Source of the DNA: Kiritimatiellia bacterium
GTDB taxonomy: Bacteria; Verrucomicrobiota; Kiritimatiellia; RFP12; UBA1067
Length of the DNA stretch: 60,217 bases
Assembly (NCBI GenBank): GCA_045641465.1
Contig: JAZUGW010000226.1
Location: forward strand, 1-60,217
Direction: 5' to 3'
The position numbers and the translations under genes are program-made. Numbering within the stretch: position 1 is the stretch's first letter; each line of letters starts with the position of its first letter. This document shows, one piece after another, positions 4,067 to 32,574 of this stretch. Below the pieces are notes generated by a model. The model did no database searches, had not been told where the DNA came from, and saw only the letters and a program-made list of their open reading frames with translations.

Positions 4067-6036
4067 CGGCCGAAGGACCGATCCAGCTCGCGGTTGGATT
4101 TGTAGATCATAATGGGCTTGCCGCGCGGGCAAACATACGGCATGCGCGCGTCGGCGAGTTCGTTCACCAGCTGAATGGCCGCTTCACGCGTCAGCTTCGT
4201 CGATGTGCCCGCAAAGGATTTGGCGACGGCCTTGGCAATGAGTTCGTCGCGCCAGCGCGTCGATCCGCGCTTGGCTCCGCCTTCGGCGATGTCCGAGGCA
4301 ATCGAGGCGAGAAGCGTTTCCGTACTTCCGCCGGCCAGCAGATCGGGAACGGCGTCGACCTTCCACGTGTCGCGTCCGAATTCCTCCAGTACGAATCCGG
4401 CCGCCGCCAGCTCGGTTTGGAACGAGCGGATCCGCGAAGAATCGGCCGGTGGCAGCTGAACCGTCTCCGGAATGAGAAGCGTCTGCGAAATCGCTTCACG
4501 CCGCTCGAGGATCTTCTCGTAGGCGATTCGGGCTCGGGCGGCTCGCGGATCCAGCAGAACCAACCCCGCATCTGTCTCCAAAATGAGCAATCCAGTGGAT
4601 GTTTGGGCCAAAAAGTTATACCAACGCCACAATTTCGTGGTTGAACTTCCATGAACACACCCATTGGGGACAGTCCCCTCGCTGGGGACAGACCCCTTAG
4701 GGGCCATGGGGACAGTCCCCTCAGAACCCGTGGGGACAGACCCCTCGGGGGCCGTGGGGACAGTCCCCCCGCTGGGGACAGACCCTGCTGAACTTGTGGG
4801 GACAGACCCTGTGGTACTTGCGGGGACAGTCCCTTCGTTTGGGGTGGGGTCTGTCCCCGGGATGCGGGGTGGTTGGTGGGGAAGTTCGAATGTACGCTGG
4901 ATGACCGGCGTGGAAAAAGGGGCGACAAAAGTCGGCTGATCCGGGACACCTGCGGAGACCTGCGGAACAGAGGAGGTCGGCGCGAGGGGTGTTGCGGCGG
5001 GGGCAGGAGGGATGCTCTCGGGGTTGAGCGCGTGTGAGACGGCTTCGATGAGCGCCTCACGCACATCGGCCGGACGGCGGAAGCGGACTTCGCGTTTGGC
5101 GGGATGTACGTTTACGTCGACTTGCGTGGGCGGCAGGTCGATGAAGAGCACCAGCATCGGTCGGGCTTCATCGCGGTTCCTTGGATAGGCCTCGCGAAGG
5201 GCGTAGGTAATGGCGGCCGAGGTGGCGGGGCGTCCGTTGACGAAAATGAACTGGTCGCGTCGCAGGGTCGGTCCCGCCGTCGGTCGTTCGATGTAGCCGT
5301 GGACCTTGACGTCGGAGGCATGCGACGCACTTCCTTCGGACGCTGTTTCAACGGGGATGAGCGACTCGGCGAAGTCGGCGCCGAAGAGTTCGCGGATGCG
5401 TTCTTCAAGGGTGGCACCCGGCGCAAAACGGTAGGTCTCGCGTCCGTCGAGAATCAAGGTGAATCCAACATCGGGATGCGCGAGCGCATGGACCGTGAAG
5501 GTCGCACGAATATGGGATTCTTCCGTGGCAAAGGCGCGCAGAAACTTCCGTCTGGCGGGAACGTTGCAGAAGAGGTCCCGAACCTCGACACATGTACCGG
5601 CGGGGGCACCGCAATCCTTGACTTCCGCCAACACGCCGGCATTTACGACGAGGCGGGTGCCGCCTTCGTCTTCGGCGCGTCGCGTGGTCAGCGTAAAACG
5701 CGAAACGGATGCAATGGATGGGATGGCCTCGCCGCGGAATCCAAGCGTGTCAATGCGCTCGATATCGTCGACGTCGCGGATTTTGGAGGTCGCCTGGCGT
5801 TCCAGGGAGAGCAAGGCATCCTCGCGTGTCATCCCGCAGCCGTCGTCGCGGACAGAGACGAGCGTGCGGCCTCCGGCGACAATTGTGACCTCGATTCGCG
5901 TGGCACCGGCGTCGAGCGCGTTCTCCATCAATTCTTTTAGAACGGATGCCGGTCGCTCGACAACTTCGCCGGCCGCGATTTTGTTCGCGACATGAAGGGG
6001 AAGCAGGCGAATGTGTCCGTCACGTTGCATTGGCAC
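4063..6036 (-). CDS. mutL: DNA mismatch repair endonuclease MutL
   Basis: NKIAAGEVVERPASVLKELMENALDAGA, TLGFRGEA, DVNVHPAKREVRF and C-terminal CPRGKP; linker contains GTVP/GSVP repeats. Confidence 0.95.
   Translation of the reverse strand: MPMQRDGHIRLLPLHVANKIAAGEVVERPASVLKELMENALDAGATRIEVTIVAGGRTLVSVRDDGCGMTREDALLSLERQATSKIRDVDDIERIDTLGFRGEAIPSIASVSRFTLTTRRAEDEGGTRLVVNAGVLAEVKDCGAPAGTCVEVRDLFCNVPARRKFLRAFATEESHIRATFTVHALAHPDVGFTLILDGRETYRFAPGATLEERIRELFGADFAESLIPVETASEGSASHASDVKVHGYIERPTAGPTLRRDQFIFVNGRPATSAAITYALREAYPRNRDEARPMLVLFIDLPPTQVDVNVHPAKREVRFRRPADVREALIEAVSHALNPESIPPAPAATPLAPTSSVPQVSAGVPDQPTFVAPFSTPVIQRTFELPHQPPRIPGTDPTPNEGTVPASTTGSVPTSSAGSVPSGGTVPTAPEGSVPTGSEGTVPMAPKGSVPSEGTVPNGCVHGSSTTKLWRWYNFLAQTSTGLLILETDAGLVLLDPRAARARIAYEKILERREAISQTLLIPETVQLPPADSSRIRSFQTELAAAGFVLEEFGRDTWKVDAVPDLLAGGSTETLLASIASDIAEGGAKRGSTRWRDELIAKAVAKSFAGTSTKLTREAAIQLVNELADARMPYVCPRGKPIMIYKSNRELDRSFGR
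4666..4858. repeat. Array of GGGGACAG(T/A)CCC near-palindromic units inside the mutL linker
   Basis: 8 direct copies starting at about 4666, 4684, 4708, 4732, 4756, 4774, 4798 and 4822, plus an inverted copy at about 4846; spacings of 18 or 24 bp. Confidence 0.9.
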
Positions 6037-23485: not shown

Positions 23486-23562
23486 CGGAGCGTTGCACAG
23501 TCTGGTAGTGCGTCAGCTTTGGGAGCTGAATGTCGTGGGTTCAAATCCCGCCGCTCCGACCA
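23486..23562 (+). tRNA. tRNA-Pro (anticodon TGG)
   Basis: Cloverleaf: CGGAGCG acceptor, TCAGC-TT TGG GA-GCTGA anticodon arm, GGTTCAAATCC T arm, encoded CCA. Confidence 0.95.
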
Positions 23563-23582: not shown

Positions 23583-23880
23583 GCCAAAATCGGCTACGGA
23601 TGGCACGCCATCCTTCGAAGAAGGTGGCGGGCCAGGAGGAACTGGAGCGAGACGCAGTCACGCGGAACGAAGGATGCCCTCCGTAGCCGTTTTCGCAGAA
23701 AACGCGAAGGAGGGCTGGCATGCTGGGTGGCCAAAATCGGCTACGGATGGCACGCCATCCTTCGAAGAAGGTGGCGGGCCAGGAGTAGCTGGAGCGAGAC
23801 GCAGTCTCGCGGAACGAAGGATGCCCTCCGTAGCCGTTTTCGCAGAAAACGCGAAGGAGGGCTGGCATGCTGGGTGGCCA
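23583..23880. repeat. 147-bp tandem duplication built of inverted REP-like palindromic units
   Basis: 23583-23729 and 23730-23876 are near-identical (differences ggaggaac/ggagtagc and gtcacgc/gtctcgc); contain CCTTCGC-hairpin-GCTACGG and the inverse CCGTAGC-hairpin-GCGAAGG. Confidence 0.9.
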
Positions 23881-23927
23881 TTGGTATGTTACTCGTCTGA
23901 AGGCTGTTGTTCTATTGGGGTTCTTTT

Positions 23928-24170
23928 ATGTTCTATACCTACATTCTTCGTTCAATCAACCATCCTGATCAGCGCTATATCGGCTCAACCACCGATTTAA
24001 AGCGGCGCTTCTCGGATCACAACAGCGGGAATGGCTGTCCGTCGTCTGTAAGGTATGCGCCGTGGAAGCTTGAATGGTATTGCGCTTTTGAGACGATTGA
24101 AAAAGCGCACGCCTTCGAGCTCTACCTCAAGTCCGGTTCTGGACACGAATTCGCCCGTCGGCACTTTTAG
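23928..24170 (+). CDS. Small stand-alone GIY-YIG nuclease
   Basis: YTYILRS...YIGSTTDLKRRFSDHNSG...PWKL...AFELYLKSGSG. Confidence 0.88.
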   Translation: MFYTYILRSINHPDQRYIGSTTDLKRRFSDHNSGNGCPSSVRYAPWKLEWYCAFETIEKAHAFELYLKSGSGHEFARRHF

Positions 24171-24547: not shown

Positions 24548-25258
24548 TTGAGAATTACGCCCTGTCTGTGGTATAATTCCTGCCAAAGGAAGGAACTGGA
24601 TTATGATTTTCGCACCTATGTCGAACGTGACGTACGGCGGTTGGTGAATGTCAAGGATTTGATTTTGTTCGAGCGGTTCGTGACGTTGCTCGCAGGACGT
24701 GTCGGTCAGATTGTCAGCTTTTCGGCTTTAGCGGGGGAGACGGGGGTGTCTGCGACAACGATTGCCAATTGGATGTCCATCCTCGAGGCGTCGTTTTTGA
24801 TATTTCGCCTTCCGCCGCATTTCAATAACATTTCCAAGCGGCTTGTGAAGTCGCCGAAAATCTACTTTACGGAAGTCGGGCTTGCGGCTTATCTGCTGGG
24901 CATTGAGACATCGCAGCAACTGGCGCGGGATCCTCTTCGTGGCAATCTGTTCGAGAATATGGTGGTGTCCGAGGCGCGCAAGCAGTTCACGAATCGTGGT
25001 CGTGATCCGCGTATGGAGTTCTATCGGACGGAAAAGGGCTTTGAGATCGATCTGATCCTTGGACGTGGCACGAATGTTCGTCCCGTCGAGGTGAAGTCGG
25101 CGCAGACATTCGACAAGTCGTTCGCACGCAACCTCGCGACTTATGCGGAAGCGGATACTACGTCCGTTTCGCCACTGCTGGTCTATGACGGTGAACCGAT
25201 CAAGTCGTTTGGCCCGGCGGGTGTTGCGGTGTCGAACTTTCGTGCGGTCGAATGGTGA
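24548..25258 (+). pseudogene. 5'-truncated AAA ATPase / DUF4143 family gene (C-terminal half only)
   Basis: Starts at TYVERDVR; has KRLVKSPKIYF, GNLFEN, EIDL and PVEVKS but no Walker A/B N-terminal domain. Confidence 0.75.
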
Positions 25259-25302: not shown

Positions 25303-25720
25303 GTTCAGAAATGCTACAATACTGACTGCTTTCTTTAGGAGTATTGTAACCTCTGAACGGATCGGCTGCCGGAAGAGGAACGAGAAAGAGTAAAAGGATA
25401 GACCGGTCGTGCCTTATGGGCGGCTGGCTCCCCACGGGTAAAACCGGAGTGGGAGATGTGTTCGGGTGGGAAACCTAACCGAATGCAGCGTACGCGAATT
25501 CAGCGTATGACGCTTATTCTGAAAATCGGCAAAATTTAAGACAAGGCGGAATACGGTGAGCCGCGCTACGTGGGCATCCACGTGGCGTGTTTTCATCATT
25601 CATGTTTTGTCAAGGGCGTTTGCCGATGCCTCAGAATAGACGTGGTGATAGGGAACACGCCACTCTTTTTTTGCCGTTGGGGCGGATCGTGTCTAACAAT
25701 GACGGCAAATGAAAGAGAAA
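25303..25720 (+). ncRNA. Candidate structured leader RNA / attenuator (unclassified)
   Basis: At least seven consecutive hairpins, including a ~125-nt rod (25515-25638) and a terminator-like hairpin + T run (25642-25672). Confidence 0.45.
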
Positions 25721-25724
25721 ACTG

Positions 25725-27335
25725 ATGCCTGAAAAGTCAAAGAATTATGGCAAACAAGATTCGTATCGGTTTGTTTTCGGAATGATCGATAATGCCATTC
25801 GCCACAACTATCCGCTCCAGGCGGTTACATTGGAAGAGAGCGTGATGGCTGATCGCCTTTGGTCTGCCTTGCACGCGAGCGGACATCAGGCCAAGAATCA
25901 TGAGACTGTCGGGAAAGCCCTGTCTGACTGGAAGAAGGGAAAGAGTTTTGATGAGGAAGTGAATTCTCTAAAGCCGCGAATCGAACAGTGGTGGAAGGAG
26001 CGTAACGAATTGTTGCATGGGCTGGCGAAGTCGGATCAAGGCAGTGCTCCGAAAATCAGACCAGAAGAGTTTGATGAAAAAGCGGGTGCTACGGCAAGAT
26101 TTGGACTTGAATTGACTAACGCAATCTGTAAGTGGTCGAAGAAGTCGATACGCAAGGCAAATCGTCTTGCCAAGACAGTCAAGAGTGTCGTCGGGACGAT
26201 TGCGCTAGCTTTGCTTTGTAATCTGGCGTCGGCCGCACCTGCGATTACTAGCGTCACTGCCCAGCAGCGGTATCCGTGGAATGGCAAGGTTGATATTTCG
26301 TATACCGTCTCCGGCGATGTCGCTTCTCATTGCCAGAACTATGGCCTCATTCCGACGTTGAAGGTGACGGCGACGGACAAGGTGGCGAACAAGACGTATA
26401 CGGCGACTAAACTTTCGGGTGATACGGCGTTGACGGATGGGACGCACAAACTCGTCTGGGATCTTGATGCACAGGGACTCGCGATCAAGTCTGCAAATGT
26501 CGTATTCTCTGTCGCGTGCGACACGACTGATGCGACCTATTGCGTCATCGACCTTTCGGCAGGGGCGAGCGCGACGAGTTATCCCGTCACCTATCTCGCG
26601 GCAGAGCCGAGCGGTGGGTTCAATGTGAATGCCTATAAGACATCGAAGCTCGTTCTGAAGCGCCTTGCGGCGGGTTCATTCAAGATGCAAGGGACCACGA
26701 CTACGACACTGACGAAGCCGTTTTTCATGGGACTTTTCGAAGTCACGCAGAAGCAGTGGACGCTCGTCATGGGATCGAATCCGTCATCTTCAGTTGGTGC
26801 CGGTGATTCCTACCCGGTTTATAAGGTCTCGTACGATATAATCCGTGGTTCTACTGCTGGTGCGAAGTGGCCCGTGTCTTCGATTGTAGATGCGACGAGT
26901 TTTCTTGGTAAGCTTCAGACGCGGACCAAGTTGAACTTCGATCTGCCGACGGAAGCGCAATGGGAGTATGCCTGTCGGGCGGGGACAACGACAACTTACA
27001 GTTACGGCAATAGTGCGAACGGGGACTATATGTGGTACGACTCGAATTCGAGTTCGACGACGCACGTAGTTGGTACGAAGAAACCGAATCCTTGGGGTCT
27101 TTATGATATGCACGGCAACGTGTGTGAATGGAATCTTGACTGGTACGGGACGCTTGCCTACGGAACGGATCCCAAAGGTTCTGCCTCCGGGTCGTATCGG
27201 GTGACGCGTGGTGGCGGCTGGTACAACGGCGGTGATGTGTCTTGTTGTGCCTCGTCCCACCGGGGCCGTTCCGACCCATCGAGCGAAGGCAGCAACGGTG
27301 GCTTCGGCTTCCGCCTCTCTAGGACCCTGCCCTGA
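25725..27335 (+). CDS. HEPN-like domain fused through a signal/TM segment to an FGE-sulfatase (SUMF1, C-type lectin fold) domain
   Basis: N-terminal helical region with E..DRL and RNELLH (Rx4H); internal VVGTIALALLCNLASA; FEVTQKQW, LPTEAQWEYACRAG, NPWGLYDMHGNVCEW, RVTRGGGW and GFGFRL. Confidence 0.8.
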   Translation: MPEKSKNYGKQDSYRFVFGMIDNAIRHNYPLQAVTLEESVMADRLWSALHASGHQAKNHETVGKALSDWKKGKSFDEEVNSLKPRIEQWWKERNELLHGLAKSDQGSAPKIRPEEFDEKAGATARFGLELTNAICKWSKKSIRKANRLAKTVKSVVGTIALALLCNLASAAPAITSVTAQQRYPWNGKVDISYTVSGDVASHCQNYGLIPTLKVTATDKVANKTYTATKLSGDTALTDGTHKLVWDLDAQGLAIKSANVVFSVACDTTDATYCVIDLSAGASATSYPVTYLAAEPSGGFNVNAYKTSKLVLKRLAAGSFKMQGTTTTTLTKPFFMGLFEVTQKQWTLVMGSNPSSSVGAGDSYPVYKVSYDIIRGSTAGAKWPVSSIVDATSFLGKLQTRTKLNFDLPTEAQWEYACRAGTTTTYSYGNSANGDYMWYDSNSSSTTHVVGTKKPNPWGLYDMHGNVCEWNLDWYGTLAYGTDPKGSASGSYRVTRGGGWYNGGDVSCCASSHRGRSDPSSEGSNGGFGFRLSRTLP

Positions 27336-27376
27336 CAGTGAATCGGTCATAACGAATAGTGAATAGATTAATAATT

Positions 27377-29503
27377 ATGAGAAACAAGCTTTTCGTGTTG
27401 TGTGCCGCGGTGGGATGCGGTACGAACCTGTTGGCTGCGATGTTGTGCAGTGGTAATTCGGCGGCGGTTAAAATCGACCAGGCTACGGGTGCGCGGGTTT
27501 CGGCGGCGAGTGAGGCGATTCGCTACTCGGCGGCGTGGGAAACGACGGCGTCGGGAGCGACGGCGGTTGTGGCGGTGAATGGGGCGACGCTCAAGTCGGC
27601 GACGGGCACGGGAAGCGTCGCCTGGACGCCAACGCGGAACGGGACCTATACGCTCACGCACAAGGTGATGAACGGCTCGTCTCAGGTTGGGAACACGCTT
27701 TCAGCGATGTTCACAGTCGCGGGAATCTATCCCGAGAATCCGACGATCTCCCCGGCTACGGAGACGAAGTTCGTCGGTTCGCAGGAGGTGACGTTGTCGT
27801 GCGGAACGGCGGACGCGACGATCTACTATACGCTCGATGGATCGGTGCCGACGCTGGAATCGCTTGTGTACGACGGGCCTTTCTCGGTGATGGAAACGAC
27901 GACGGTTATCGCGCGTGCATTCTTTGAAAACGGTGATGCGAGTCCTGAGACGGTAACGGCCACTTATATCCTCAACAAGGTCGAAGCGCCGGTGATTTCA
28001 CCGACGACCGGTACGACTTTTGATTCATCATTGACAGTCAATATGTCGTGTCCAACTGAAGGCGCGACGATCCGCTATACGACGGACGGATCGGAGCCGA
28101 CGGAAGAGTCGCCAATCTACACGCGGTTCAAGATTACGGCGCGGACAAAAATTAAAGCAAGGGCTTTTGTTGACGGGATGGTGGCGAGTGATGTTGTCAC
28201 GGCCGAGTATGCGCTTGGAACATGCTCCGATCCAGTCTTCTCGCTTGGGGATGGTACGGTCTTTCAGCATTCGAACCAGGAAGTCTTGATCGCTTGGGAC
28301 GACACAGACGGTACGCTGCGCTATACGACGGACGGATCGGAGCCGACGACGGATAGTCCGGTCTATGCGGGGGCATTCACGATTAGCGAAACAACGACAG
28401 TCAAGGCAAAGGTGTTCGGTGAGAGCTTCTTCGACAGTACGGTCGTGACGTCCGTGCTGACGCGCGAATGGCTGAAGGTTGCGACACCGGTCGTGACAGC
28501 GCTTGATTCGTTCACGGGTTCGAAAACTGAAGTTTCCCTTGCGTGTGCGACGGAAGGTGCTGTGATTCGTTACACGCTCGACGGTCGCGAACCGAATTCG
28601 CATTCGCCGAAGTACACGGTGCCGTTCATGGTCGATCAGACGGTGACAGTCAAAGCGTATGCGGTTCTTGCCGACTATACGAACTCGGATGTTGCGTCGA
28701 AGACAATCACGAAGATCTGGGGCGTTGGCGATTCGGTCGGTGTTTCCGATCAGGCGTTTGCGACATCTGGCAATGCAGGATGGATTCGCGACGCGTCGGT
28801 TTCATATGACGGCAACGAGTCCGTCCGGTCGGGTGAAATCGTGTCTGAGCAGCGCTCGATCCTCGAGACGAAGGTCATGGGCAAGGGCACGGTGAGTTTC
28901 AGGTGGAAGGCCTCCACAGAGAATACTGAAGGTGATTTTGACTGGGACCACGGCGAGTTCCATGCCGACGGGGAAGCCTACTTCATCGAAGGTGCGACCG
29001 ACTGGCAGCCGATCTCGCATACATTCACAACCGATGGCGAACATACGCTCCAGTGGATCTATGTGAAGGATGATTTCGACGATACGCCTTATGGTGCCGA
29101 TGACTGCATTTGGATGGATGCGTTCGTGTGGGAGCCCGTGCCCGCAGTTGAAGAGACACAGACGACTGAGGTGCCGGTGCCGTTTGCGTGGTTGAAGGCG
29201 AAGTATTCCGAGCTTACGGATGCCGCGTCGTACGAAGCGAAAGCGAACGAAATGGCTTCGAATGGCGTCAATAAGGTTTGGGAATGCTACGTGATCGGAC
29301 TTGAGCCGACGGCGGTGGATGCGCGGTTTGTTGCGTCGATTGAGATGGTTGAGGGCGTGCCGAAGGTGACGTGGTCGCCGGATCTCGGGGCGGAGCGTGT
29401 GTACAAGGTTTTCGGATCGACCGATCTCAAGACCTGGACGGAAGTAACAGACAAGACAAAGAGTTCATGTAATTTCTTCAGGGTCAGGGTTGAGATGAAG
29501 TAA
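27377..29503 (+). CDS. Secreted surface protein with tandem CHB_HEX_C / Fn3-associated repeats
   Basis: Signal peptide; four repeats of Px(I/F/V)...(I/L)(Y/R)YT(L/T)DGxxP...Y; C-terminal WECYVIGLEPT...FFRVRVEMK domain. Confidence 0.8.
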   Translation: MRNKLFVLCAAVGCGTNLLAAMLCSGNSAAVKIDQATGARVSAASEAIRYSAAWETTASGATAVVAVNGATLKSATGTGSVAWTPTRNGTYTLTHKVMNGSSQVGNTLSAMFTVAGIYPENPTISPATETKFVGSQEVTLSCGTADATIYYTLDGSVPTLESLVYDGPFSVMETTTVIARAFFENGDASPETVTATYILNKVEAPVISPTTGTTFDSSLTVNMSCPTEGATIRYTTDGSEPTEESPIYTRFKITARTKIKARAFVDGMVASDVVTAEYALGTCSDPVFSLGDGTVFQHSNQEVLIAWDDTDGTLRYTTDGSEPTTDSPVYAGAFTISETTTVKAKVFGESFFDSTVVTSVLTREWLKVATPVVTALDSFTGSKTEVSLACATEGAVIRYTLDGREPNSHSPKYTVPFMVDQTVTVKAYAVLADYTNSDVASKTITKIWGVGDSVGVSDQAFATSGNAGWIRDASVSYDGNESVRSGEIVSEQRSILETKVMGKGTVSFRWKASTENTEGDFDWDHGEFHADGEAYFIEGATDWQPISHTFTTDGEHTLQWIYVKDDFDDTPYGADDCIWMDAFVWEPVPAVEETQTTEVPVPFAWLKAKYSELTDAASYEAKANEMASNGVNKVWECYVIGLEPTAVDARFVASIEMVEGVPKVTWSPDLGAERVYKVFGSTDLKTWTEVTDKTKSSCNFFRVRVEMK

Positions 29504-29511
29504 CGAACACA

Positions 29512-29545
29512 AGCGGCATCCCCCCCAAGGGGTGCCGTTTTGTTT
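29512..29545 (+). terminator. Intrinsic terminator
   Basis: gcggcatccc...ggggtgccgt stem followed by tttgttt, just after the stop at 29503. Confidence 0.75.
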
Positions 29546-29628
29546 ATATCTTCAAAATACAAGATTGAGCGATGCAACTGATCGTGAAAGAACGATTTAG
29601 TTGCATATGGAACGCGCAAAAATATCTG

Positions 29629-29675
29629 TTAGATATGCAACTAAATAGGAATATTTGAAATAGTTGCATATCTAA
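29629..29675. promoter_or_regulatory. Perfect 15-bp inverted repeat (operator-like) upstream of the ATPase gene
   Basis: ttagatatgcaacta (29629-29643) / tagttgcatatctaa (29661-29675); further ATGCAACT half-sites near 29572 and 29599. Confidence 0.55.
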
Positions 29676-31451: not shown

Positions 31452-31530
31452 AGTGTCGTCGATGGAAGCTCGGGGAGCAGCCGATTCCAACCCGGCCACT
31501 GCGGGTTCGACTCCCGCCTTCGACGACATT
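31452..31530 (+). ncRNA. tRNA-like RNA (Trp CCA anticodon-like), non-canonical, without a CCA end
   Basis: Acceptor 31458-31464/31518-31524 extended by 31452-31457/31525-31530; D stem GCTC/GAGC; anticodon arm GCCG-A-TTCCAAC-C-CGGC; T arm GCGGG-TTCGACT-CCCGC. Confidence 0.75.
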
Positions 31531-31554
31531 GATTTGAAAAAAGGAATGTTAGAC

Positions 31555-32574
31555 ATGGCCGATTACATTGAAATTGACGGATCGATGGGCGAGGGCGGAG
31601 GACAAGTCCTCCGTACATCGTTGTCGCTGAGTGCGATCACGGGTACGGAGATCGCGCTCAAGAAGATTCGTGCCGGACGTTCGAAGCCGGGATTGAAGCG
31701 ACAGCATTTGACGTGTGTCAAGGCGGTGGCGGAAATCTGCGGTGCGCAGGTTTCGGACGTGACGGTCGGTTCGATGGAGCTCTCGTTCAAGCCGGGGCCG
31801 ATCAAGGGCGGCGACTATCGGTTCGATGTCGGTACGGCCGGAAGCGTGACGCTCGTCGCCCAGACGGTCATTCCCGTCTTGCTGAAGGCGGACAAGCCCT
31901 CGACGGTGACGATCACGGGCGGAACGCATGTGCCGTTCGCACCGATCTGGGAGTTCTTGGTCGGGACGTATCTGCCGGAACTCCGCCGTATGGGCGCACA
32001 GGTGGAGGCCGAGCTTGAATGCTGCGGATTCTATCCGGCGGCCGGCGGGGTGGTGAAGCTGAAGGTCTGGCCGTACGACAAGACGAAGAAAATCGACTCC
32101 TTCAAATTGACGGAACTCGGTGCGTATCGTGGCGGCAAGGTCGTGGGTGTCGTTTCGGCGATTCCCACGGGGATCGCCGAGGCGGAAGTCGGCATCGTGC
32201 AACGACAGTTCGCGGAATTGGGGTTGACGTCCGAGATCCGCACAGTCGAAGCGTTCGGTCCGGGCAACTACTGCTATGTGCAGCTCGACTATGAGCGAGG
32301 CTCGGTCGTGCTGTCAGCGGTTGGAACCTACAACAAGTCGCGCAAGCAGGTCGCCCACGAGGTGGTGACGGCGGTACGCGACTTCCTCAAGGCCGGTAAG
32401 GCGTGTGAAAAGCATCTCGCCGACCAACTGCTTGTGCCGCTCAATATTCTGCTCGGTTATGACGCATGTGACGATGAGTACTGGGAGCGCTGGAATCTGG
32501 ACGTCCAGCAGGAAACAATGCATTATCTGACCAATGTTGACGTCATCAGGAAGTTCAGACTTTGGGAATTCTAA
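31555..32574 (+). CDS. rtcA: RNA 3'-terminal phosphate cyclase
   Basis: IEIDGSMGEGGGQVLRTSLSLS, IRAGRSKPGLKRQHL, GTAGSVTL, GGTHV, GFYPAAGG, HLADQL and HYLTN (adenylated His). Confidence 0.93.
   Translation: MADYIEIDGSMGEGGGQVLRTSLSLSAITGTEIALKKIRAGRSKPGLKRQHLTCVKAVAEICGAQVSDVTVGSMELSFKPGPIKGGDYRFDVGTAGSVTLVAQTVIPVLLKADKPSTVTITGGTHVPFAPIWEFLVGTYLPELRRMGAQVEAELECCGFYPAAGGVVKLKVWPYDKTKKIDSFKLTELGAYRGGKVVGVVSAIPTGIAEAEVGIVQRQFAELGLTSEIRTVEAFGPGNYCYVQLDYERGSVVLSAVGTYNKSRKQVAHEVVTAVRDFLKAGKACEKHLADQLLVPLNILLGYDACDDEYWERWNLDVQQETMHYLTNVDVIRKFRLWEF

Follow-up and report, generated by a model that had tools for sequence, protein, structure and literature searches.

How does a protein that begins with a folded, helical domain come to carry a signal peptide in its interior? 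This question is raised by an open reading frame (ORF) of a Kiritimatiellia bacterium, found on contig JAZUGW010000226.1 of assembly GCA_045641465.1; the whole 60,217-nucleotide (nt) stretch that was analysed is referred to below as the window. Within this 536-residue frame, a 149-residue all-helical domain runs into a signal-peptide-like segment, which is followed by a β-rich region and an FGE-sulfatase domain, the sole Pfam match of the fused protein (Table 1). The first-pass annotation had described an ORF with a helical N-terminal domain (N-domain), an Rx4H motif, a signal-peptide-like segment lacking a methionine of its own and an FGE-sulfatase domain, and each of these was recovered at the position it had given. 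We explain the ORF as a real, lineage-specific in-frame fusion of two genes that normally lie next to each other in gut-type bacteria of the Planctomycetes-Verrucomicrobia-Chlamydiae (PVC) group, one for a HEPN-like protein and one for a TvpA-like exported protein. The internal signal peptide would probably be cleaved, and the HEPN-like domain would be left tethered to the membrane. Taken as a whole, we give this explanation about an even chance of being right. The parts are of known kinds; what is new is their combination in one real gene fusion.

The first-pass annotation had proposed a search for the same fusion in related genomes. The fused junction was found to recur in four other protein clusters with 81-98% identity to the window, which shows that it is not an oddity of one assembly. 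Three of these (P0001-P0003) are 534-584 residues long, and the fourth (P0004), with 180 residues on a 1725-nt contig, is probably cut and carries the same junction. Identity to the window was 83-89% in the N-domain (98% for P0004), 89-92% in the middle region and 67-81% in the FGE domain, and the motif residues were retained in all of the fused copies. A paralogue search within the window returned only the gene itself.

To place the fusion among its unfused relatives, stand-alone loci were taken from a scan of species-representative genomes with a 12-row alignment; the EESI pattern chosen for the scan mismatches the EESV of the window, so that the window's own lineage was out of its reach. 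The scan gave 12 loci, and in all 12 the HEPN-like frame stops after 167-225 codons. At the five PVC loci (L001-L005), the next gene on the same strand after the HEPN-like ORF encodes an exported protein, with the signal peptides judged by eye. The gap between the two genes is 10 nt in L001 (Verrucomicrobia UBA3783) and ~29 nt in L002 (Victivallales), and the genes share a 4-nt ATGA overlap in L003 (uncultured Verrucomicrobia), L004 (Kiritimatiellia) and L005 (Kiritimatiellae), L003 and L004 being near-duplicates. The downstream proteins at the PVC loci carry LRR_5, BACON/Flg_new or FGE-sulfatase domains. The one in L005 is an FGE-sulfatase homologue that contains the exported module of the window, and a gene for a CHB_HEX_C_1 repeat protein lies further downstream, as it does in the window. 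The DNA of the two downstream genes aligns between the window and L005 at 65-68%. L005 is the syntenic locus in its unfused state. The seven non-PVC loci have other neighbours, and relatives in Spirochaetota, Gemmatimonadota and Cyanobacteriota have no exported-protein genes downstream.

The relationships of the N-domains were analysed in a maximum-likelihood tree of 63 rows, whose bootstrap was not yet completely stable. In it, the fused N-domains available at full length, four in all (the window and P0001-P0003), formed one clade with support 100/100. This clade was nested in a larger one (99/92) that holds all four of the PVC stand-alone loci placed in the tree (L001, L002, L003 and L005) and excludes all four of the non-PVC loci placed (L006, L007, L009 and L011). 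The position of the fused clade within the PVC clade therefore indicates that the fusion was one event within the PVC branch. The fusion joined a pre-existing, probably translationally coupled gene pair, and a small deletion at the overlapping stop and start codons would have been sufficient. It had also been suggested at first that a small gene had been accidentally inserted at the 5' end of the exported-protein gene. This suggestion falls, as the HEPN-like ORF already lies directly upstream of exported-protein genes in PVC relatives and L005 is unfused.

The signal peptide is where the two former genes meet. The fused protein has a single strongly hydrophobic stretch, with the best 19-residue Kyte-Doolittle windows falling between residues 152 and 177. 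Residues 136-153 contain eight K/R and no D/E, and they are followed by an uncharged run of 28 residues (154-181). The hydrophobic core spans residues 154-167 and leads into the small-x-small site A168-S169-A170, followed by A171-P172. The segment thus has the basic n-region, hydrophobic core and cleavage site of a type I signal peptide. It is, however, not N-terminal; a folded domain precedes it, it begins near residue 150, and it lacks a start codon. In-frame ATG and GTG codons are absent from residues 100 to 175, where the alternative codons in frame are TTG (130 and 163), CTG (167) and ATT/ATC/ATA (111, 134, 142, 159 and 174).

The comparison with unfused homologues gives the segment its identity. 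All 11 of the unfused homologues inspected start with a methionine and one to three basic residues, and their hydrophobic core is followed by a small-x-small site, after which they continue as (A/T)P(T/S)I(T/S)xVTAQQRYPWNGK. The conserved mature N-terminus reads (A/T)P(A/T/S)I(T/S)xVTAQQRYPWNGK. The window segment, KTVKSVVGTIALALLCNLASA before the site and APAITSVTAQQRYPWNGK after it, aligns residue for residue with the signal peptide and mature start of these proteins, and this homology identifies it as a former Sec signal peptide. Because the A-S-A site before A-P and the length of the core match those of the unfused paralogues, cleavage is probable. The full-length AlphaFold2 model can be used for the N-domain and for the helix that passes through the hydrophobic segment, but not for the exported part, where the predicted local distance difference test (pLDDT) score is below 50. 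There, the last HEPN helix is predicted to run unbroken from residue 113 to residue 167, with pLDDT falling from 83 to 54. The topology proposed earlier, namely a cytoplasmic domain, a membrane segment and an exported lectin-fold domain, is also the one predicted here.

These findings can be arranged into a mechanism. The upstream gene would have encoded a small protein of the HEPN superfamily, predicted to be a metal-independent RNase, and the downstream gene a Sec-exported, TvpA-like lectin-fold protein with a hypervariable C-terminus. With the loss of the first gene's stop codon and the second gene's start codon, the basic tail of the HEPN-like protein would now lead directly into the hydrophobic core of the old signal peptide. 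The 149-residue domain would be translated first and remain in the cytoplasm, after which the basic stretch and the hydrophobic core would engage Sec with the N-terminus inside and the lectin-fold part would be threaded out. Signal peptidase I would most likely cut after A168-S169-A170. The cut would release a mature exported protein identical in kind to the product of the unfused paralogues, and the HEPN-like domain would be left on the inner face of the membrane, held by a short hydrophobic tail.

HEPN domains are defined by two α-hairpins with an insert between helices 2 and 3, by an acidic residue borne on helix 2, and by a helix 3 that ends in an Rx4-6H motif, in which a polar residue, N, D or H, follows the arginine (Anantharaman et al. 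2013, PMC3710099). A full HMMER search with residues 1-149 against 1.84 billion cluster representatives (50% identity clusters) identified 321 relatives of the N-domain at E ≤ 1e-3, 71 at ≤ 1e-10 and two at ≤ 1e-30. Among the 150 of these relatives listed, the median length was 162 residues, seven were longer than 250 residues and 132 had at most 200 residues, from which it follows that the N-domain is normally a protein on its own. The N-domain aligns end to end with stand-alone relatives at 24-46% identity. In an alignment of 74 rows, comprising the window N-domain and 73 relatives, E38, R44 and H98 were invariant (74/74 each), and R93 (73/74), D43 (72/74) and N94 (71/74) were nearly so.

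The AlphaFold2 model obtained from this alignment was all-helical (mean pLDDT 92.9; predicted template modelling score 0.87), with helices at residues 8-26, 30-51, 62-70, 77-80, 83-99 and 113-148. Four of these (8-26, 30-51, 83-99 and 113-148), together with the insert at 52-82, agree with the HEPN four-helix layout. E38 lies in the predicted helix 30-51, in keeping with an acidic residue on helix 2, and R93-N94-x3-H98 closes the predicted helix 83-99 ahead of a loop at 100-112, as expected of Rx4-6H. The top Foldseek match of the model in the Protein Data Bank was the HEPN protein TM0613 (1o3u), with a probability of 0.97, E = 0.18 and template modelling scores of 0.44/0.53. Ten of the 74 rows match Pfam HEPN_RiboL-PSP (PF18735; best E = 3.1e-4), and single relatives match each of HEPN_Cthe2314, HEPN_MAE_28990, HEPN_Apea and DUF4145. 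The window N-domain itself matches the PADLOC profile CARF2--CARF_HEPN at E = 1.1e-3 in its HEPN part (profile positions 255-349 of 376), and five of the 74 match CARF1--CARF_HEPN (best E = 1.6e-5).

Neither Pfam nor NCBIfam has a model for this family, and the 74-row alignment gave no consistent family in NCBIfam. The nearest clusters in an Atlas search were unnamed, and the closest named one was DUF4145 (15% of its members; score 0.89). The best Foldseek match to viral models was an unnamed protein (E = 0.029), which was uninformative, and a tblastn search of plasmid and phage collections with the N-domain gave no match at E ≤ 1e-3. The motif, the predicted helix topology and the weak yet consistent profile and fold matches agree with the HEPN-like domain that had been proposed for this region. 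Together they suggest that these proteins are a family without a name within the HEPN superfamily, in which a motif resembling an active site is intact, and we infer that the domain is a metal-independent RNase.

Two known systems were considered for the N-domain and rejected. Avd, the accessory protein of diversity-generating retroelements (DGRs), does not fit, as the N-domain gene precedes the target instead of following it and the invariant positions resemble an active site. We take Avd to belong to the Pfam family 23S_rRNA_IVP, and that family is absent from the 25 families shown of the 35 matched by the N-domain relatives. A HEPN-MNT (type VII) toxin-antitoxin pair was also set aside, since the fused ORF is flanked by a DUF4143 fragment on the upstream side and by a CHB_HEX_C_1 repeat protein on the other, with no nucleotidyltransferase; one of the 74 N-domain relatives has a weak HepT_toxin match (E = 0.0064).

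The family also includes other domain arrangements. P0069, one of the 150 relatives listed, has two C-terminal hydrophobic segments, and membrane tethering therefore appears to have arisen more than once among these HEPN-like proteins. In P0018 and P0033 the domain is fused to a further region on its C-terminal side, for which P0018 gives a weak match to Mrr_N, and P0106 and P0153 have in common an N-terminal extension of ~155 residues that matches no family.

The exported part belongs to a large family. A search with residues 150-330 retrieved 613 proteins at E ≤ 1e-3 among 4417 candidates; of the 120 relatives listed, 105 are 371-441 residues long, 12 exceed 600 residues and three are fused (P0001-P0003). 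The few source names present were 'formylglycine-generating enzyme family protein' or 'SUMF1/EgtB/PvdO family', from Kiritimatiellae. The best solved relative was Treponema denticola variable protein 1 (TvpA; 2y3c) with E = 1.1e-26. TvpA scored 1e-23 to 1e-26 and formylglycine-generating enzymes ~1e-9 to 4e-11, the alignment around the cysteines being ambiguous. The alignment with TvpA extends through the C-terminal variable stretch. Residues 171-323 are strongly conserved over 109 family rows, have no Pfam match and are predicted, with low confidence, to form β-strands.

Column entropy, computed over the same 109 rows, was used to locate the variation. Residues 171-490 had a mean entropy of 0.69 bits, with at least 2.5 bits in five of 317 columns, and the signal peptide had a mean of 2.86 bits. 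In residues 491-527 the mean was 2.2 bits, 18 of 33 columns reached at least 2.5 bits, and variable columns alternated with conserved scaffold residues. Among 303 pairs that are at least 90% identical in residues 171-490, the median identity in residues 491-527 was 48.5%, and five pairs had the same stretch. The window codons end in C or T at 18 of 20 hypervariable positions versus 262 of 516 elsewhere (Fisher p = 4e-4), which is an NNY bias. As read from these columns and codons, the pattern is the signature of a DGR variable region. TvpA is a DGR target (Kaur et al. 2020, PMC7159879), and by analogy the exported part is likely to be targeted by a DGR as well. A blastn search of positions 27051-27340 against the window returned the self match and chance matches of at most 16 nt; no template repeat was found there or in L005. 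No reverse transcriptase was found among the 37 window proteins scanned (30 from 81 ORFs of at least 180 residues and seven around the locus).

Several observations weigh against the explanation by gene fusion and signal-peptide cleavage, or against parts of it. The acidic motif of the N-domain reads E-x5-R in place of the usual HEPN E-x3-[KR], none of the Foldseek searches with this domain reached E ≤ 0.001, and a sequence-profile search of solved structures with its alignment gave nothing below E = 0.7 and no solved HEPN. The curated cut-off was attained by none of the HEPN models, the window N-domain alone has no Pfam match at E ≤ 0.1, and the profile-match tables that hold the HEPN matches also hold unrelated single ones. 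No antitoxin-like partner was seen beside the fused ORF. On the side of topology, the 28-residue uncharged run is long enough for a membrane anchor. The fused form is rare (three of the 120 exported-part relatives listed) and its copies are close kin; the fusion is also young, so that it could be tolerated rather than useful. Finally, the last 316 residues of P0003, hypervariable stretch included, are 100% identical to those of the unfused P0157, but the signal peptides and the ~60 mature residues after them are different. This pattern reflects either recombination among paralogues or chimeric assembly, and some of the copies may therefore be chimeras.

The length of the uncharged run, which can span the membrane, also allows for a protein that is never cut. 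Such a one-polypeptide sensor RNase would stay anchored, and a ligand (a phage part, a glycan or another cell) bound by the hypervariable lectin domain outside would pair the HEPN domains and switch on RNA cleavage, with the predicted continuous helix of residues 113-167 rigidly coupling both sides of the membrane. Ire1 and RNase L follow the same logic, as do NLR-like proteins that combine HEPN effectors with FGS sensors. Three membrane-associated groups of bacterial HEPN proteins have been described, with stimulus-dependent RNA degradation proposed for them (PMC3710099). For bacterial NACHT proteins, HEPN effectors and FGS sensors of the antigen-receptor type are listed (10.1101/2022.07.19.500537), and a role in antigen sensing has been proposed for lectin domains diversified by DGRs (PMC10907252). 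We nevertheless consider an uncleaved sensor unlikely. Its cleavage site and core length do not differ from those found in the cleaved-type signal peptides of unfused paralogues, and most members of the exported family are simple proteins without a cytoplasmic part, so that the lectin domain was not built as a signalling sensor. The bolder form of this idea is a minimal surface antigen receptor wired to an RNase, in which a phage or other foreign surface would be bound outside the cell by a hypervariable lectin domain, possibly diversified by a retroelement, and one membrane helix, continuous with the last HEPN helix, would pair two cytoplasmic HEPN domains and so trigger RNA cleavage; we regard it as a long shot. 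A different role for the N-domain, also improbable in our estimate, would be that of a helical helper or regulator of the expression or export of the downstream proteins, with no nuclease activity, the fusion fixing a 1:1 ratio. The five PVC loci and the window do place the gene before varied exported-protein genes (LRR_5, BACON and FGE-sulfatase), and both the window and L005 have a conserved structured leader in front of it. The invariance of E38, R44 and H98 and the near-invariance of R93 and N94 over 74 diverse relatives is, however, the pattern of an active site, and the relatives in Spirochaetota, Gemmatimonadota and Cyanobacteriota have no such genes downstream.

The remaining alternatives concern the reading frame itself, and both seem very improbable. 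If the long ORF were only apparent, the exported protein would be made with a long signal peptide from an internal non-ATG start such as the TTG at residue 130; a second TTG (163) and ATT/ATC/ATA codons at 134, 142 and 159 are also in frame. This account has to do without an ATG or GTG and without a stop codon that would close the upstream frame. L130 is near-invariant in the HEPN family, so that the protein explains the codon, and none of the five fused sequences has a methionine at the junction. An assembly or sequencing artefact, or a decaying pseudogene, is suggested by the highly repetitive nature of the exported family across contigs and by P0003 and P0157, whose identical 316 residues behind different 5' ends are what a chimeric assembly could give. 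Such an origin has very little in its favour once the four other clusters are considered, as these carry the junction at 81-98% identity with substitutions on both sides. No homopolymer lies at the junction, the N-domain is conserved like the exported part, and its motif residues are intact. A lineage-specific gene fusion with a probably cleaved internal signal peptide is our preferred explanation.

The protein can be compared with known systems through each of its parts. The stand-alone HEPN-like proteins, with HEPN_RiboL-PSP (PF18735) as the nearest Pfam family, share with the window domain the E, R and H that never vary, its RNxxxH motif and its arrangement of helices, and they are cytoplasmic proteins of ~160 residues; the window domain is instead fused to a signal peptide and an exported protein. 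TvpA (2y3c) is the closest solved relative of the exported part, with a C-terminus that is likewise hypervariable between conserved scaffold residues. It differs in that no template repeat or reverse transcriptase was found in the window, the β-rich N-terminal region of the window protein is unmatched, and a cytoplasmic domain precedes the signal peptide. Ire1 and RNase L are KEN-type HEPN RNases, membrane-spanning or ligand-switched, that are activated by pairing. In contrast to them, the window protein has no kinase domain, the opposite membrane orientation and an unrelated HEPN family.

An Ire1-like idea has already been published for membrane-associated bacterial HEPN proteins (PMC3710099), which resemble the window protein in having a predicted cytoplasmic HEPN domain, one or more membrane segments and a proposed cleavage of RNA at the inner face. 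The three groups described there comprise a WP-signature membrane helix before HEPN, a helical domain and a membrane helix before HEPN, and HEPN before two membrane helices and a zinc ribbon; none of these three is a HEPN domain with a former signal peptide and a large lectin-fold ectodomain. The NACHT/STAND defence proteins have the effector HEPN at the N-terminus and FGS (FGE-sulfatase) at the C-terminus (10.1101/2022.07.19.500537), and other domains are reported to be always N-terminal of FGS (PMC7159879). The window protein differs from these in lacking an NTPase switch and in having its halves predicted on opposite sides of the membrane. Most cellular DGR targets bear an N-terminal membrane segment or signal peptide (Roux et al. 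2021, PMC8144416). Among the papers listed by literature searches for this combination, none described a HEPN domain, signal peptide and lectin fold in one protein or the PVC gene pair; supplementary domain tables may list such cases.

Table 1. Positions of the fused ORF, its parts and the associated features in the window (aa, residues of the fused protein).
Feature	Position	Strand	Remarks
Fused ORF, 536 aa + stop	25725..27335	+	ATG start
HEPN-like all-helical domain, aa 1-149	25725..26171	+	AlphaFold2 model, relatives, weak HEPN matches
EESVMADR, helix-2 acidic/basic motif, aa 37-44	25833..25856	+	E38 and R44 invariant
RNELLH, Rx4H motif closing predicted helix 3, aa 93-98	26001..26018	+	
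Former signal peptide, now internal, aa 150-170, A-S-A end	26172..26234	+	Aligns with signal peptides of unfused homologues
β-rich conserved region of the exported part, aa 171-323	26235..26693	+	No family match
FGE-sulfatase / C-type-lectin-fold domain, TvpA-like, aa 324-531	26694..27317	+	Pfam E = 2e-30
Hypervariable C-terminal stretch, DGR-variable-region-like, aa 491-527	27195..27305	+	Column entropy
Conserved structured leader 5' of the start codon, tentative member of the unit	25542..25678	+	~81% identity to L005 5789-5922
Exported CHB_HEX_C_1/Fn3_assoc repeat protein, downstream	27359..29503	+	Pfam; transcription unit probably common with the fused ORF

The leader listed in Table 1 is ~81% identical between the window and L005, while the HEPN-like proteins of the two loci are 37% identical. 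Both leader regions (window 25542-25724; L005 5789-5982) are predicted to form a small hairpin, a long hairpin followed by a U-run, which is attenuator-like, and a third hairpin that reaches the ribosome-binding region; their fold z-scores were -5.5 and -3.5. An Rfam search of the leader region and of L001, L002, L003 and L005 identified tRNA-Pro alone, and a covariance model of the leader found no copy beyond the two training ones in the window or the 12 loci. In L001 (~5640-5800), L003 (~5650-5800) and L004 (~900-1060), the limits being approximate, the HEPN-like gene is preceded by another, unlike conserved block, which has no Rfam match at the gathering score in L001 and L003.

No terminator-like site separates the fused ORF from the CHB_HEX_C_1 gene, which begins 24 nt further on and is itself followed by a terminator-like hairpin at 29511-29540. 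The leader, the fused gene and the CHB_HEX_C_1 gene thus probably form one transcription unit. The surface proteins encoded at 6470-10411 of L001 and at 27359-29503 of the window have CHB_HEX_C_1/Fn3_assoc repeats in common and, judged by eye, a similar C-terminal region of unassigned family.

The first-pass annotation had also drawn attention to rtcA downstream. An RtcA ORF is indeed present at 31453-32574 (PF01137, E = 1.2e-67), ~4.1 kb downstream of the fused ORF. The longest RtcA ORF contains a tRNA-Trp (31457-31527) at its 5' end, and the true start must therefore be further down. A link to the fused gene was not borne out, as two unrelated genes (one of them ATPase_2/DUF234-like), the terminator-like hairpin at 29511-29540 and the tRNA-Trp intervene; no RtcB was seen, so that RtcA stands without it.

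The surrounding region has a G+C content of ~0.50-0.55, lower than the 0.60 elsewhere, from tRNA-Pro (23486) to ~31.5 kb. Directly after tRNA-Pro (23486-23562), two tandem 147-nt units (23583-23876; 98% identical), each holding a 19-nt inverted repeat, mark the start of the low-G+C part. They are followed by an 87-residue GIY-YIG protein (23907-24170) and by a DUF4143-only ORF (24548-25258), which lacks the usual AAA ATPase part and is probably a gene remnant. The AT-rich gap ahead of the ATPase_2/DUF234-like gene holds another 19-nt inverted repeat (29595-29646), with 89% complementarity and 14 nt between its arms.

The meaning of the fusion depends on whether it serves a function. Were the antigen-receptor idea true, the protein would be a bacterial one-polypeptide counterpart of Ire1 and RNase L, with a programmable sensor and no NTPase switch. 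It would form a compact sensor-effector protein whose sensor is diversifiable on the outside, and the separate-gene versions of PVC bacteria would represent this system split into two parts. A neutral fusion would still be a clean example of gene fusion that hints at a functional link between two neighbouring genes. If it is functional, it would tie a widespread, uncharacterised HEPN-like family (321 representative clusters at 50% identity) to the cell envelope and to a very large, hypervariable family of exported lectin-fold proteins of Kiritimatiellae, and so make the association of the gene pair in PVC bacteria directly testable. It would also offer a natural case for studying the fate of an internal Sec signal peptide, be it cleavage or anchoring.

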